From: Alphaproteobacteria bacterium
GTDB taxonomy: Bacteria; Pseudomonadota; Alphaproteobacteria; CAAHEQ01; UBA3637
Assembly: GCA_017467335.1 (NCBI GenBank)
Contig: JAFTSJ010000037.1
Coordinates: 1,078-65,077 of the forward strand
Direction: 5' to 3'
Length of the DNA stretch: 64,000 nucleotides
Below the pieces are notes generated by a model. That model was not told the origin of the DNA. It did no database searches and saw only the letters and a program-made list of their open reading frames with translations. Positions 41,657 to 51,437 of the stretch are shown here, piece after piece; positions within the stretch are counted from its first letter, which is position 1, and each line of letters begins with the position of its first letter. A program made the translations under genes and the position numbers.

Positions 41657-42595
41657 ATGAAGATGAGTGAAGATAAAAAAACGGGTGAATTTTTATATTT
41701 TGAAGAAAAAGACAATGCAATTTATTCAAAAGAAACCGGTCAAAAAGTGGTTGATATCAATGATGAAACGCATATTTATGAATATCAGGATAACGGTTTG
41801 CTGAAAGTCAGCACGGCAGATACGTGTGTATTATACGATTATCGGGGAAATTTACTGCCACATTTTGAAAACGGAGGTAAATTTATTCATTTTGGCCGAT
41901 TTAATAGTTCATTTTATACTGTGAAAACATCTGAAGGAGAACAATCATATCTTATACCATGTATCAGACGAGGCTCTTTTGTAATTGAGAGTGATGAGAA
42001 AGCAGGTCAATTTGTTGTTTCAACGGTAAAAGGTAAGGAAATAGGAAGCGGTGTTGATTTTAATTTTTATCAACCAAATCCTTTATGTTTATATATTGGT
42101 ATTAAAAATAAAGATGATATGTGGACTGTTTATGATGAAAAAGGTATTCCTGAACCGAAAATGACAAATGTTCGTTGGGTGGGATGCCATAGTTCCACAG
42201 ATTCTTTTGACATTCGTAAAAATTTGTATTCTGATTATGAAACTGTATTAACAAGACGACAAAATCGCAATCGTCTGGCTACTTACTCAATATGTGCCGC
42301 TTTGTTTTGTTTAGGTGCTTTATGGGTAAGTCGGTCGTGTCAGAAAGAAGAACAGCAATTGAATGAATTTGCACAACAAGACGCGACATATTTAGGTGCA
42401 TCAGATGGTGTTTTGTTGTTTGATACGGATGGTGATAAGGAAACGGCTGAATTAGGTGCTGATTTACACCGAAAATCTCGGACTAAAATTATGGGTAAAA
42501 TGTACAAGAAGGAAGGTCAATGTCGCAAAATTACTCATTGGTGCGATATAACCGGATTGTCCATTCGTTCTTTTGATAAAGTAAATGAAAATTAA
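41657..42595 (+). CDS. paralog 1 of a four-member bitopic membrane-protein family (312 aa): cytoplasmic beta-rich repeat domain, single TM, ~80-aa Cys-containing C-terminal ectodomain
   Basis: No signal peptide; positive residues (RRQNRNR) precede the hydrophobic helix LATYSICAALFCLGALWV. The conserved C-terminal block is QQDATYLGASDGVLLFDTDGD...EGQCRKITHWCDITGLS. N-domain motifs (YDYRGNLLPHFENG; WTVYDEKGIPEPKMTNV) loosely resemble WG-type repeats. Confidence 0.75.
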   Translation: MKMSEDKKTGEFLYFEEKDNAIYSKETGQKVVDINDETHIYEYQDNGLLKVSTADTCVLYDYRGNLLPHFENGGKFIHFGRFNSSFYTVKTSEGEQSYLIPCIRRGSFVIESDEKAGQFVVSTVKGKEIGSGVDFNFYQPNPLCLYIGIKNKDDMWTVYDEKGIPEPKMTNVRWVGCHSSTDSFDIRKNLYSDYETVLTRRQNRNRLATYSICAALFCLGALWVSRSCQKEEQQLNEFAQQDATYLGASDGVLLFDTDGDKETAELGADLHRKSRTKIMGKMYKKEGQCRKITHWCDITGLSIRSFDKVNEN

Positions 42596-42611
42596 ATATC
42601 AGTGAAAAGGT

Positions 42612-43547
42612 TTGGTAATGCCCAAGAAACAACATAATGACAAGATGTTAAATTTTCAGGAAGTTAATGGTGCTATTTATTCAAAAGCAACGGGCAACAA
42701 GATTATTGACATGGCTGAAGTCAAATTTATTTGTGAAAACAGGTGGTTGGGTGTCTTGGTTGTTAGTAAGCCTGATGCGAATATCTTATATGATTATCGG
42801 GGAAATTTATTGCCTCATTTTGAAAACGGAGAAACTTTTAAATATTTTTGCGGGCGTGATAATCGGTATTATACTGTTAAAAAGGGTGAAATGGAAGAAA
42901 CATATCATATTCCATGTATTAAACAAGGTTGTTTGATTGTTGAGTATGATGAAAATAAAAAACAATATACACTATCGACAATTAAAGGAAAACAAATTGC
43001 TGTTGGAAAGGATATAACACCATATAAAATAAATGAACGGTTGTATTTATGTGTTAAAAATAATGACGGACGTGTAACAGTTTATGATGAAAAAGGTGTT
43101 CCAGAACCACAAATGACAAACGTTGATGAAGTTCGTTCGTGTGGTTGGGATTTTTTAGAAATTCGTTCAAGCAAACAGAATTCTGATTATACGCAGGTTT
43201 TAACAAGACGGCAGATGAGGAACAAAAAATTGACACGAACACTTTTAACAACTTTGGGGGCAATAGCCGTTGTTTTGGGCGGCAAGTGTTGTCAATCGTA
43301 CATACAGGAGTTGGATGAGATAAAACAACAAGATGCAACATATTTAGGTGTGTCAGATGGTGTTTTATTGTTCGATACGGATGGTGATACGGATACAGCG
43401 GAAATGTGTGTTGCTTTGGCTGATACAAATAAATCGGAAATTATCAGAAGTATGTATAAGCAGGAAGGAAAATGTCGAAAAGTTGCTCAATGGTGTGAAA
43501 GAACAGGATTATCAGTCTGTGTTTTTGATCGTGTGAATGAAAATTAA
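42612..43547 (+). CDS. paralog 2 (311 aa)
   Basis: Collinear with paralog 1: YDYRGNLLPHFENG, IPCIKQG, VTVYDEKGVPEPQMTNV, TM TLLTTLGAIAVVLGG, and C-terminal QQDATYLGVSDGVLLFDTDGD...EGKCRKVAQWCERTGLS. Confidence 0.75.
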   Translation: MVMPKKQHNDKMLNFQEVNGAIYSKATGNKIIDMAEVKFICENRWLGVLVVSKPDANILYDYRGNLLPHFENGETFKYFCGRDNRYYTVKKGEMEETYHIPCIKQGCLIVEYDENKKQYTLSTIKGKQIAVGKDITPYKINERLYLCVKNNDGRVTVYDEKGVPEPQMTNVDEVRSCGWDFLEIRSSKQNSDYTQVLTRRQMRNKKLTRTLLTTLGAIAVVLGGKCCQSYIQELDEIKQQDATYLGVSDGVLLFDTDGDTDTAEMCVALADTNKSEIIRSMYKQEGKCRKVAQWCERTGLSVCVFDRVNEN

Positions 43548-43567
43548 ATATTGAAAAGGATTTATAA

Positions 43568-44503
43568 ATGACAATAATACCTAATGAAGATGAATTTTTT
43601 TATTTTAAACAGATTGGTGATGTAATTGTTTCAAAAGCAACAGGGAGAATTATCACAAAATTAGATGAAAATACATTTGTTGAAGAAAATGCAGAAAACG
43701 GCTTATTAGTCGTTAAAAATACAGACAAAAGTGTTGTGTGCGATTATCGGGGTGAGTTATTGTCCCATTTTGAAAATGGTGCTTCATTTAAGGAATTTAG
43801 TCGTGAACGGGTTGAAACACGCCATTATATTGTAAAGACAGAAGAAGGCGAGAAAAGATGTCATATTCCATGTATCAGACGAGATGATTTTGTTATTGAA
43901 TATGATGAAAAATCACAACAATATGCATTTTCAACAACAAATGGAAAGCAATTTGCCATTGGTAAAGATTTTGAATTACATAAAATAGATGAAGGTTTAT
44001 TTATTGCTATTCAGGATGAAAAAGAACGATGGACAGTTTATAATGCAAAAGGCATTGTTGAACCTCAATTAAAAGACGTTGTCTGTGTACGTGTTTATGA
44101 AGAAAATAAGTTCCATGTTCGACGAACACCTGATTCTTGTATGGAACCTGCTTTGACAAAACAACAAACACGTCGCAGAAATGTGAAACGGGGAACTCTG
44201 ATAGGGTTGCTTTCGTTGGCAGTCGTTGTGGGTGGCAAGGGTTGTCAGGCATATATGGATGAATTGCGTGCAATTCGTCAGCAAGAAGCAACATACTTAG
44301 GTGTATCCGATAGTGTTTTATTATTTGATACGGACGGTAATCACGCAACGATTGAATTAGGTGTGTCTTTGACAGATAAACAAGATAAAGTTCGTGTTTT
44401 GGGAAGCCTGTTTCAGCAGGAAGGACAATGTCGCAAAGTGGCTCAATGGTGTGATATGACAGGATTGGCGACATCTTATTTTGAAAAGGTAAATTCGAAC
44501 TAA
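43568..44503 (+). CDS. paralog 3 (311 aa)
   Basis: Collinear with paralogs 1 and 2: CDYRGELLSHFENG, IPCIRRD, WTVYNAKGIVEPQLKDV, TM LIGLLSLAVVVGG, and C-terminal QQEATYLGVSDSVLLFDTDGN...EGQCRKVAQWCDMTGLA. Confidence 0.75.
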   Translation: MTIIPNEDEFFYFKQIGDVIVSKATGRIITKLDENTFVEENAENGLLVVKNTDKSVVCDYRGELLSHFENGASFKEFSRERVETRHYIVKTEEGEKRCHIPCIRRDDFVIEYDEKSQQYAFSTTNGKQFAIGKDFELHKIDEGLFIAIQDEKERWTVYNAKGIVEPQLKDVVCVRVYEENKFHVRRTPDSCMEPALTKQQTRRRNVKRGTLIGLLSLAVVVGGKGCQAYMDELRAIRQQEATYLGVSDSVLLFDTDGNHATIELGVSLTDKQDKVRVLGSLFQQEGQCRKVAQWCDMTGLATSYFEKVNSN

Positions 44504-44519
44504 AAAGATAGGAATTAAC

Positions 44520-45377
44520 ATGTTTGAAACAGATAAAAATTTTGAAATTATTGGTACGGAAGTCTATCATAAATTAACAAATAAACTGATTGTTGATTTG
44601 GGAAAAAACGGGGCTGCGTTAGAAACACCCATGTGTTTGTTGGTACGTACATCAGATCAATCCAAGAATTATGATATGGCGTTTGATTGCGATGGTAACT
44701 TACTTAAAGGAACAGGTGAAAACGATTGTGTCGGTGTTTTCCCGTGTGATAAAAAATATCAGATTCTTCATCACAGCGGACGGGTTACAAATTATTTTTT
44801 TCCACTTATTAAAACATCGTTTTTTCATATCAGACATGATGGTCAAAAATATGTTTTTTCAACAAAAACAGACCGTGAATTTGCATCGGGAACAAATTAT
44901 CACATATACACAATTGATTCTCGTGAATACTTAGCTGTTTGTCAGGAAAATACACAACAAGATGAAAAGGGCGTTAATTTAAGTGATTGCAAACGTTGGA
45001 CATTGTTTAGTGCTGATGGCGTAGTTGTTCCTGAAGTATCAAATGCTCGTTCAATTCGGTTGGCTGATAATCATTTTTTTGTTGAAAATGAAAACCATGA
45101 TGTGAAAGAAGTCCCCGTTCTTACTTACGAAAAAGAATCTTTTGGTGCAAAGCGGTGGGGATGTTTGTTTGCCGGTGTTGTGACATGTGTTTCATGGATT
45201 GCAATTGCTCAACTGTCACGGTGTTTTGTTGAGGATGTATCGGTTAAGCAAGAAATTCCAACATGTTCGGGTTTAAGCATTGATAATGAAAATGAAATGA
45301 AATCAATATTACCTCCTCGAAAAATTACTTCCGGTAATGTTATTTCGCAACCTGACAAGCAACACGTGAAACAGTAG
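44520..45377 (+). CDS. paralog 4, divergent (285 aa): related N-domain and TM but an unrelated C-terminal tail
   Basis: Shares the overall layout (beta-rich N-domain, TM WGCLFAGVVTCVSWIAIAQL) but lacks the DATYLG...CRK..WC block. Confidence 0.65.
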   Translation: MFETDKNFEIIGTEVYHKLTNKLIVDLGKNGAALETPMCLLVRTSDQSKNYDMAFDCDGNLLKGTGENDCVGVFPCDKKYQILHHSGRVTNYFFPLIKTSFFHIRHDGQKYVFSTKTDREFASGTNYHIYTIDSREYLAVCQENTQQDEKGVNLSDCKRWTLFSADGVVVPEVSNARSIRLADNHFFVENENHDVKEVPVLTYEKESFGAKRWGCLFAGVVTCVSWIAIAQLSRCFVEDVSVKQEIPTCSGLSIDNENEMKSILPPRKITSGNVISQPDKQHVKQ

Positions 45378-46130: not shown

Positions 46131-46433
46131 ATGAGAAAGTTAATTAAATTTTGTACATGGTTAATTGTACATGTGATTGCTTTTGTTGTTATTGCTTGGA
46201 TTTTCTTGGGTATGACACCAACTGAAACATATCAAAAGTTTATTTATCGTATGCAAAGTTTCCGTTCAGGAACGGCAACGTTTGCTTCAGATTTATCAAA
46301 AACGGGAGCTAGTATGGGGCGTGTTGCCAATCAACACTTGGGCGAAGCATCAGAACGTATTGATGGTCGTGACCCATATGAACGTCATAATGCAATTATT
46401 GACCAAAAAGTTCGTAGTGATTTTGGAAAATAA
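46131..46433 (+). CDS. hypothetical small membrane protein (100 aa)
   Basis: One N-terminal TM (LIVHVIAFVVIAWIFLG), followed by the terminator at 46451..46483. Confidence 0.4.
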   Translation: MRKLIKFCTWLIVHVIAFVVIAWIFLGMTPTETYQKFIYRMQSFRSGTATFASDLSKTGASMGRVANQHLGEASERIDGRDPYERHNAIIDQKVRSDFGK

Positions 46434-46450
46434 GTCGTATTTCTTTTAAA

Positions 46451-46483
46451 AATCGGATTAACAGGGTTTAATCCGATTTTTTT
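46451..46483 (+). terminator. rho-independent terminator (aatcggattaa / ttaatccgatt stem + T7)
   Basis: aaaatcggattaacagggtttaatccgatttttttaatg. Confidence 0.75.
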
Positions 46484-46587
46484 AATGGAGTCATGTAGAA
46501 AAAATGTAAAAAAATGTAAAAAGCCTTGCAAAATGAAAGGCAATATGTTAGAAAAAAACACAGTACATTTTAACAAGGGATAAAAAT

Positions 46588-48401
46588 ATGACATCAGAAA
46601 ATCAAACAGAAAATTTATTTACGATTGGTTCTTCTCGTTATGTGGAAGTTGAATCAGCGGTTGCATTGAACGAAAAACAAATGGAAACGTTACGCAAACG
46701 TTTGGAAAAAGTGTTAAAAACAGAACGATTTGTTTTACAAGTCAAAGTGAATCCGGCATTGTTAGGTGGTTTGTCATTGAAAGTTGATTCGTTTTTAGTT
46801 GATGCTTCCGTGAAAGGTCAATTACAAGCGTTTGAAAAAGAAATTGCTCAAAAAGTTTCATCGGCAGTTGATGTAACAAAAATTGCTGATATTTTTTCTG
46901 ATAGTGTTAAATCTTTTCAAGAAAAAACAATTGTGTCTGAGGTCGGGGTTGTTTTATCTGTTTCAGACGGTGTTGCTAAGGTTGAAGGGTTAAAATCAAT
47001 TGCTTCCGGTGAACGGGTTGTTTTTGAATCCGGTGCTCAAGGGATGGCTTTAAACTTAAATCCGGATGGCGTAGATGTTGTTATTTTTAATGGTGCCGTT
47101 AATATTCGTGAACATGAAAAGGTCTCTCGTACGGGAATGATGAACACTGTTCCGGTCGGTAAAGAATTGTTGGGTCGTGTTGTTAATCCTTTGGGTGAGC
47201 CGTTAGATGGAAAAGACGGTTTTGATGATTTACCACGGAATCCGGTTAATGCTCCTGCTCCGGGGATTATTGCTCGGTCACCGGTTAATGTTCCCATTCA
47301 AACGGGGATTAAAGGAATTGATGCCCTTGTTCCGATTGGTCGGGGACAACGTGAATTGATTATCGGAGATAGACAAACCGGTAAAACAGCCATTATTTTA
47401 GATACAATTTTAAGTCAAAAAGAGATAAATGCCCGTGTATCTGATAAAGATAAATTATTTTGTGTTTATGTTGCCATCGGACAGAAACAATCAACCGTTC
47501 GGGATATTATGCGTGTGTTAGAAGAACGAGGAGCAATGGATTATACGGTTATTGTGTCCGCTACGGCTTCTGATAGTGCTGCTATGCAATATTTGGCTCC
47601 ATATGCCGGTTGTACTATCGGTGAATATTTCCGTGATAATGGTATGAATGCCATTGTTTTCTATGATGATTTGTCAAAGCATGCTGTAGCATACCGTGAA
47701 ATGTCATTGTTGTTGAAACGTCCGGCCGGTCGTGAAGCATATCCGGGTGACGTTTTCTACTTACACTCTAAATTGTTAGAACGAGCTGCCCAGTTAAGTG
47801 CCGAAAATGGGGGTGGGTCCTTGACGGCTTTACCGGTTATTGAAACGCAAGAAGGGGATGTGTCTGCCTATATTCCGACTAATGTTATTTCTATTACGGA
47901 CGGACAGATTTTCTTAGAAACAACTTTGTTCCATCAGGGCGTTCGTCCGGCTATCAACGTTGGGTTATCGGTTAGTCGTGTCGGGTCTGCTGCTCAAAGT
48001 AAAGCCATGAAAAAAGTTGCCGGTTCATTGAAATTGGATTTGGCTCAATATCGTGAAGTTATGTCATTTTCGCAATTTGCTTCTGATTTGGATCCGGCAA
48101 CACAGGCATTGTTAAATCGAGGGGCCCGTTTAACAGAAATTATGAAGCAAAAGCAATATCGTCCATATTCAATGGCACAAGAAGTTGTTTCGATTTGTGC
48201 CGGTGTTAGTGGTTTACTTGATGAAATAGCTATTGATAAAGTGTCTGTTTTTGAACAAAAACTGCAAGATAAAGTTGCTGCGGATTATCCGGAAATACTT
48301 GAAAGTATTACTACAACTCGTGAATTAAAAGATGATATAAAAGAAAAATTGCACTCAGTCGTCCGATTGGTTGTACAAGAAATGACGGGAAATACAGATA
48401 A

Positions 48402-48405
<4 letters not shown>
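46588..48405 (+). CDS. atpA: F1 ATP synthase alpha subunit with an N-terminal in-frame fusion to the C-terminal half of subunit delta (OSCP)
   Basis: The first ~90 aa ([26 protein letters not shown]...[29 protein letters not shown]) match only the C-terminal domain of AtpH. The frame then runs without a stop into the canonical alpha subunit ([22 protein letters not shown]..., P-loop GDRQTGKT); 605 aa total. Confidence 0.8.

Positions 48406-51437
<3,032 letters not shown>

Follow-up and report, generated by a model that had tools for sequence, protein, structure and literature searches.

A natural fusion of the delta C-terminal domain to the F1 alpha subunit, conserved in gut Alphaproteobacteria and possibly supporting a multi-stalk ATP synthase

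The H+/ATP ratio of ATP synthases has long been treated as a value set by the size of the c-ring alone, and, within the delta subunit (delta/OSCP), the C-terminal domain is the part that binds the b stalk in canonical enzymes. The present study concerns a gene in which this domain is joined to the F1 alpha subunit. It lies at positions 46588..48405 (+) of a 64,000-nucleotide stretch of DNA, hereafter the window, from an Alphaproteobacteria bacterium (GenBank assembly GCA_017467335.1, contig JAFTSJ010000037.1, positions 1,078 to 65,077 of the forward strand). Work of 2025 on an engineered enzyme, and on a natural one with two stalks, revealed that extra stalks and a-subunits can multiply the H+/ATP ratio. 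The natural enzyme is the F1Fo of Chloroflexus, the solved structure of which has two stalks and two a-subunits and a shortened delta N-domain that dimerises.

The engineered enzyme is the closest counterpart of the gene described here. Ueno et al. reasoned that the delta N-domain, which sits on the threefold axis, restricts the enzyme to one stalk (Nat Commun 2025;16:5410), and they removed delta residues 2-104 of Bacillus PS3 and joined residues 105-178 to alpha via GSGG (bioRxiv 2024; Nat Commun 2025;16:5410). The resulting deltaΔN-alpha enzyme possessed as many as three peripheral stalks, every one of them accompanied by an a-subunit. Relative to gamma, a was ~2.4 times and b 2.0 times more abundant; the H+/ATP ratio reached 5.9 vs 3.1, and ATP was synthesized at about half the proton-motive force. 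The additional stalks and a-subunits, on average ~2 a-subunits per enzyme, assembled spontaneously from a normal operon (Nat Commun 2025;16:5410). The same authors pointed out natural deltaΔN-alpha fusions in Acidaminococcus fermentans (UniProt D2RLW6) and in G4Q3K6 and A0A1I2C5T3, and predicted the same multi-stalk behaviour for the Acidaminococcus fusions, pending experiments (Nat Commun 2025;16:5410).

Architecture of the fusion gene

The open reading frame (ORF) at 46588..48405 (+) comprises 605 aa plus a stop codon and starts with ATG. An in-frame TAG is located upstream at 46549, and a Shine-Dalgarno-like motif, AAGGGA (46575..46580, +), was read from the sequence 7 nt 5′ of the ATG. A protein search identified the product as MBQ9090376.1, the window's own protein, which GenBank labels merely 'F0F1 ATP synthase subunit alpha'. 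A preliminary description of this stretch, made from the DNA alone, had let the feature start at 46434, which covers the intergenic region, whereas the gene proper begins at 46588. Its view that the upstream part encodes just the delta/OSCP C-terminal domain and runs in frame into AtpA was borne out by the profile searches. Pfam OSCP (PF00213) matched aa 19-85 over profile positions 105-171 of 172 solely (E 1.4e-15), and the AtpA equivalog model TIGR00962 matched aa 95-598 over profile positions 3-500 of 503, with 740 bits against a cut-off of 484.45. As had also been stated, neither a stop codon nor an ATG separates the delta and alpha parts. TIGR01145, the equivalog model for a complete delta subunit, gave 55.6 bits, just under its cut-off of 57.5, because only the C-terminal 40% of delta remains. 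The alpha core contains the Walker A motif GDRQTGKT and is followed directly by atpG, atpD and atpC, as expected in motif and gene context for an alpha subunit.

Pfam, the predicted fold and Foldseek all recognised the delta/OSCP C-terminal alpha/beta domain, and the N-terminal helical bundle, which corresponds to about the first 100 residues of delta, is missing from the window protein according to both the Pfam coverage and a hidden Markov model (HMM) of the N-domain. The gene is a delta subunit without its N-terminal helical bundle, the C-terminal domain of which is fused via a 9-aa linker to a complete F1 alpha subunit. As a consequence, each copy of alpha in the alpha3beta3 head bears its own delta-C domain.

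Five parts could be delimited on the plus strand. The N-terminal tail (aa 1-16, 46588..46635) is variable and probably disordered, with a predicted local distance difference test score (pLDDT) below 50, a majority-residue fraction of 0.33, indels and a high ratio of nonsynonymous to synonymous substitution rates (dN/dS). It is followed by the delta/OSCP C-terminal domain (aa 17-85, 46636..46842), delimited by the PF00213 match, the Foldseek matches, its conserved residues, its dN/dS and its predicted fold, which is beta-alpha-beta-beta-beta-alpha in the structure model. The 9-aa linker (aa 86-94, 46843..46869) varies in sequence and is invariant in length. The alpha N-terminal helix is retained (aa 95-112, 46870..46923); the TIGR00962 match begins here, at profile position 3 and aa 95, and the models place a helix at 96-108. 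The alpha core (46924..48402) consists of the beta-barrel crown, the nucleotide-binding domain and the C-terminal helical domain.

Comparison with known structures led to the engineered PS3 protein. The PDB chain 9jc1_I was the sole PDB sequence that matched the window protein over both parts, in one stretch covering aa 26-588, and its junction aligned with the 9-aa linker without a gap. Foldseek returned 9jc1 as the top match of the full-length model (577 columns) and also of a model of aa 1-136, which was computed separately and had a pLDDT of 75.7 (116 columns, root-mean-square deviation (RMSD) 3.4-3.9 Å); the next matches of the latter were delta/OSCP C-domains, and matches to such domains had RMSD values of 1.2-3 Å. 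As in the PS3 deltaΔN-alpha protein, the N-domain is gone and delta from about residue 105 to its end is joined to the alpha N-terminus, with the delta-C domain in frame and the alpha N-helix kept, which places the window protein in the deltaΔN-alpha class. By the alignment and the models, the geometry of the natural fusion matches that of the engineered one.

Conservation and origin in the gut clade

The architecture is widespread. At least 120 protein clusters at 61-100% identity share it, all of ~596-638 aa and all with OSCP and the three alpha domains. A species survey, in which one genome per GTDB species was scanned for the N-terminal architecture, retrieved 40 loci with the same arrangement from about 36 species-level metagenome-assembled genomes recorded as 'Alphaproteobacteria bacterium'. 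All of the samples came from gut or rumen, with buffalo, sheep, roe deer, rabbit and human among the hosts. An exhaustive search with aa 1-135 among representatives clustered at 50% identity yielded mostly fragments and canonical deltas; since full-length fusions share their clusters with ordinary alphas, it allows no count of fusions. L026 (CAYPVK010000004.1) and P0088, which belong to the alphaproteobacterial fusion clade, are recorded as 'Lactobacillales bacterium', a label that is probably a binning or taxonomy error.

An alignment of 27 diverse clade members was used to assess conservation. The delta-C signature LNPxLLGG...D.S..G.L..F was invariant, including residues L58, G60/G61, D72, G77, L79 and F82, and no indel at all was found in aa 17-130. 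Comparison of the junction in related genomes, proposed in the preliminary description, revealed that the fusion is kept and that the spacing from F82 to E118 is 36 residues in 27/27 members despite the variable linker sequence. Pairwise dN/dS was 0.03-0.2 for the delta-C domain and 0.02-0.12 for the alpha core, approximate values since dS is near saturation for many pairs, and free evolution was confined to the 16-aa N-terminal tail. By these values, the delta-C domain is under purifying selection. The clade is deep, with alpha-core identity as low as 64%. Among 32 distinct sequences, start codons did not exceed 50% at any codon position of the junction; codons 94 and 96 of the window gene are GTT and GTA, and the position of the ancestral alpha Met is now occupied by V, L, M or I in the clade and is GTT in the window.

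The alpha core of the window protein scored best against mitochondrial and Paracoccus alphas (~623-645 bits), and Bacillus PS3 alpha gave 571 bits. In a neighbour-joining tree of the alpha cores of 80 loci, the alphaproteobacterial fusion clade was monophyletic in 100/100 bootstraps. Fusions from Firmicutes formed their own group in 91/100 bootstraps, and the two sets were joined in just 4/100 replicates, suggesting that the alphaproteobacterial fusion probably arose independently of those in Firmicutes. In canonical relatives, atpH and atpA stand in the same frame with one stop codon between them. Most likely, the fusion arose in place in the alphaproteobacterial atpHAGDC operon, through deletion of the 5′ half of atpH together with loss of the atpH stop and the atpA start.

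The Firmicutes deltaΔN-alpha fusions were detected at ten loci from rumen and gut. Their carriers comprise Saccharofermentans, including a complete chromosome, Mageeibacillus, and the cultured Ruminococcaceae bacterium KHP2 and YRB3002. These proteins are 634-655 aa long with a linker of ~85 aa and are encoded in a contiguous operon with the order a-c-b-fusion-gamma-beta-epsilon, in which the N-domain HMM detected no delta N-domain.

Stalk number and alternative explanations

We propose that loss of the delta N-domain, which normally lies on the threefold axis and thereby restricts the complex to a single stalk, would lift this limit in the fusion enzyme. Each of the three alpha-tethered delta-C domains could then dock a b/b′ dimer, and each stalk would bring an a-subunit to the c-ring, giving two or three stalks and proton paths. 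The H+ (or Na+)/ATP ratio would thereby rise up to threefold, which would allow ATP synthesis at low ion-motive force, or the pumping of more ions per ATP in reverse, and would suit an anaerobic, fermentative gut organism. The preliminary description had taken the gene for a genuine fusion, by which every alpha carries the stalk-binding domain covalently; this is supported by the conservation of the gene, by the selection on it and by the comparison of structures, and the consequence of all three alphas carrying the domain, up to three stalks and a-subunits, can be drawn from the engineering work. By analogy with engineered PS3 and Chloroflexus, we consider it fairly likely that the conserved fusion enzyme assembles two or three stalks and a-subunits. 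The carriers known so far are all anaerobic gut or fermenter organisms. A bolder proposal is that the gut clade natively runs a near-threefold-symmetric enzyme with three stalks and three a-subunits, at a ratio far above those of measured natural enzymes, and that this design evolved convergently at least three times (Alphaproteobacteria, Oscillospirales-type Firmicutes and Acidaminococcus) as an adaptation to low ion-motive force; it is offered tentatively, as a possibility that we lean slightly against.

Several points weigh against a native multi-stalk enzyme or the evidence assembled for it. Stalk number and H+/ATP have been measured for the engineered fusion alone, and the natural fusions are known from their genes. 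The engineered PS3 enzyme itself was heterogeneous, with 1-3 stalks, and slower than the wild type (Nat Commun 2025;16:5410). The full-length AlphaFold2 model of the window protein had low confidence (pLDDT 64). In the tree, the fusion clade adjoined canonical alphaproteobacterial alphas, which are accompanied by a separate full-length delta, in only 44/100 bootstraps, a weak value. The F0 genes for a, c, b and b′ were not found in the window, in the ±10-kb flanks of the clade loci or in 20 kb past both window ends, and the search for a further delta, which was negative, reached ±10 kb around each of the 40 loci of the clade and ~84 kb of the contig that includes the window.

The heterogeneity of the PS3 preparation bears on the alternative that the fusion is functional and the enzyme has a single stalk, with one of the three delta-C domains occupied by b/b′. 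The fusion would then merely replace the non-covalent anchor between delta and alpha at a normal ion/ATP ratio, for example because a and b are limiting or because the geometry of the c-ring admits one a-subunit. Particles with fewer than three stalks and the slower turnover of the PS3 enzyme fit this explanation. However, that very system assembled its extra stalks and a-subunits spontaneously. Two of the three domains would also stand idle, although both the domain and the length of the linker are under tight conservation. That the fusion became fixed repeatedly, in separate lineages of anaerobic gut bacteria, suggests a functional consequence beyond anchoring. A single-stalk enzyme is rather unlikely in our judgement, although it is the chief alternative to a multi-stalk one.

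Another explanation is that the missing N-domain, or a full-length atpH, is encoded elsewhere, for example with the F0 genes or fused to b, or that cleavage of the fusion, or internal initiation, yields a normal alpha. Alphaproteobacteria have a split organisation, atpHAGDC / atpIBEFF′, with the F0 genes at a separate locus, which fits the absence of F0 genes near the fusion; the operon was inspected within ±10 kb, which leaves room for a distant delta. To search for the N-domain, an HMM was built from the N-terminal halves of 70 canonical deltas, and in all canonical loci that were retrieved it detected an N-domain immediately upstream of alpha. The N-domain HMM found no match in any reading frame of the window or of ±10 kb of the 40 clade loci; an HMM of the delta-C domain had taken up alpha N-termini out of fragment sequences, and only the N-domain HMM was used as evidence. 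Six-frame phmmer searches with the a, b, c and delta subunits of E. coli and R. rubrum likewise revealed no F0 gene or delta N-domain in the window. The preliminary description was right that the 154 bp upstream hold no delta N-domain, since neither the intergenic stretch nor the adjacent 100-aa ORF (46131..46433) contains one. Moreover, what is left of delta lies where atpH ancestrally stood, immediately upstream of atpA, a genome as a rule has a single copy of atpH, and the contiguous Firmicutes fusion operons hold no N-domain. A delta or delta-N gene at another locus is unlikely. The internal non-ATG start of atpA that the preliminary description had considered is contradicted by the lack of a conserved start codon at the junction, and cleavage is hard to reconcile with the strict conservation of linker length. 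Taken together, this group of explanations appears quite improbable. An artefact or decaying gene, be it an assembly or frameshift error or a recently deleted atpH pseudogene read through into atpA, was also among the earlier suggestions and is favoured by the unusual architecture only. The identical architecture occurs in the at least 120 clusters and in 40 loci assembled independently, by many laboratories and from many hosts, and the delta-C domain is under purifying selection in a deep monophyletic clade, so that we regard this possibility as refuted.

Genomic surroundings and comparison with known systems

Upstream of the fusion gene, a hairpin with a 14-bp stem and a 6-nt loop followed by a U-run was found at 46448..46481 (+), with a folding free energy of −17.5 kcal/mol (z −4.73; 0/200 shuffles as stable), which supports the terminator placed earlier at 46451..46483. 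A simple consensus terminator scan did not list it, but folding supports it, and it is likely to be the intrinsic terminator of the upstream 100-aa ORF (46131..46433, +). Because the hairpin is likely to end transcription of that ORF, the fusion gene is probably the first in its own transcription unit. The 100-aa ORF encodes one N-terminal transmembrane (TM) helix and has no Pfam match; such an ORF stands directly 5′ of the fusion gene in at least 29/40 clade loci and is absent in canonical loci, and the hairpin stands between it and the atp genes. A divergent YgjP-like gene lies upstream of the fusion in the window, and the clade keeps the order YgjP, small TM ORF, in some cases a His_Phos_1 gene, and after these the fusion, gamma, beta and epsilon.

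Downstream, atpG (gamma, 364 aa) occupies 48402..49496 (+), its start overlapping the stop codon of the fusion (ATGA), followed by atpD (beta, 485 aa; 49511..50968, +) and atpC (epsilon, 158 aa; 50961..51437, +). The gamma subunit has 340-364 aa in the fusion clade (364 in the window), whereas most canonical loci encode one of 253-303 aa. Two insertions are specific to the clade: the first, of ~15 aa, falls near aa 62-78, and the second, of ~55 aa, near aa 220-275. The latter occupies the loop that immediately precedes the C-terminal helix, the site of the chloroplast/cyanobacterial gamma insertion. The second insertion is lacking in the Firmicutes fusion lineages.

Further genes were recorded around the operon. 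An ADP-forming acetyl-CoA synthetase-type protein (693 aa in full) is encoded at 169..1749 (+) of the window and a pyruvate phosphate dikinase at L086 13920..16664; the two enzymes would fit an energy metabolism based on fermentation. At 41657..45377 (+), four paralogous ORFs of 285-312 aa stand in tandem, each with a hydrophobic stretch near the C-terminal third, and the first, the one scanned, had no Pfam match. An ankyrin-repeat protein of 2213 aa is encoded at 2336..8977 (+), and two more, of 469 and 1140 aa, just left of the window (L088 2258..7156); such proteins suggest a host- or protist-associated lifestyle. The GC content of the genome is ~36%.

Other arrangements of delta came to light during the searches. 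P0126 (Clostridium argentinense / C. faecium, 364 aa), P0131 (360 aa) and P0127 (299 aa) are deltas with a normal N-domain and two or three copies of the C-domain, and P0133 (186 aa) consists of two delta C-domains alone, the Pfam OSCP model matching 2-3 stretches across these four proteins; tandem C-domains may be an alternative natural route to several stalk-binding sites. Two metagenomic fragments, P0134 (227 aa) and P0226 (339 aa), contain an apparent full-length delta (N and C) running in frame into the alpha N-terminus and may represent an intermediate state or a sequencing error. Contigs of Patulibacter, Solirubrobacterales, Bacteroidales and Omnitrophica were rejected as fusions, as they hold canonical delta and alpha genes in the same frame with one stop codon between them, and P0130 (1960 aa, 23 matched stretches) is an irrelevant low-complexity shrimp protein.

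The deltaΔN-alpha design itself was known already, having been engineered, structurally characterised and noted in three natural proteins. New here are its fixation in a deep gut alphaproteobacterial clade, its probably independent origin there, the additional carriers in Firmicutes and the strict constraint on linker length. In nature, the three-anchor design of the engineered protein is a stable condition under strong selection: it is fixed throughout a large group of gut Alphaproteobacteria and is present, probably independently, in rumen Firmicutes and, by the literature, in Acidaminococcus. These lineages link the deltaΔN-alpha trait to low-energy anaerobic habitats and offer many natural candidates for testing the existence of three-stalk F-ATP synthases. 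They also expose an annotation problem: fusions labelled 'subunit alpha' make genomes appear to lack atpH.

Among the described systems, the mycobacterial b-delta fusion (AtpFH; PDB 7jg5 chain d) is akin in that a stator subunit is covalently fused to delta. It carries a full-length delta on the C-terminus of b and builds one stalk, whereas the window protein has the delta-C domain alone, on alpha; NF009961, the b-delta fusion model, gave 27.4 bits against a cut-off of 328, and no b-like part is present in the window protein. In the Chloroflexus enzyme, likewise natural and of the F-type, a change in the delta N-domain permits multiple stalks and proton paths. There, delta is a subunit of its own with a short, dimerising N-domain, and the enzyme forms two stalks rather than potentially three and has no alpha fusion; in the window, by contrast, the N-domain is lacking and delta is not a separate gene. 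The Firmicutes fusions resemble the window clade in carrying the delta-C domain on alpha in an operon without the N-domain, but differ in linker length (~85 aa vs 9 aa), in their contiguous F0-F1 operon and in forming a separate alpha-core clade. The Acidaminococcus fusions, compared by their description only, share the architecture (delta-C on alpha, no delta N-domain) and the anaerobic gut or fermentative habit; they belong to a different phylum (Negativicutes), whereas the window clade has an F1 operon apart from F0 and the short linker. The nearest likeness is to the engineered PS3 protein (9jc1), which was designed with GSGG at the junction, while the window fusion is natural and joined by a linker of native sequence. 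The window enzyme, described from its genes alone, further differs from it in its alphaproteobacterial (mitochondrion-like) alpha, its extended gamma and, presumably, a b/b′ heterodimer.

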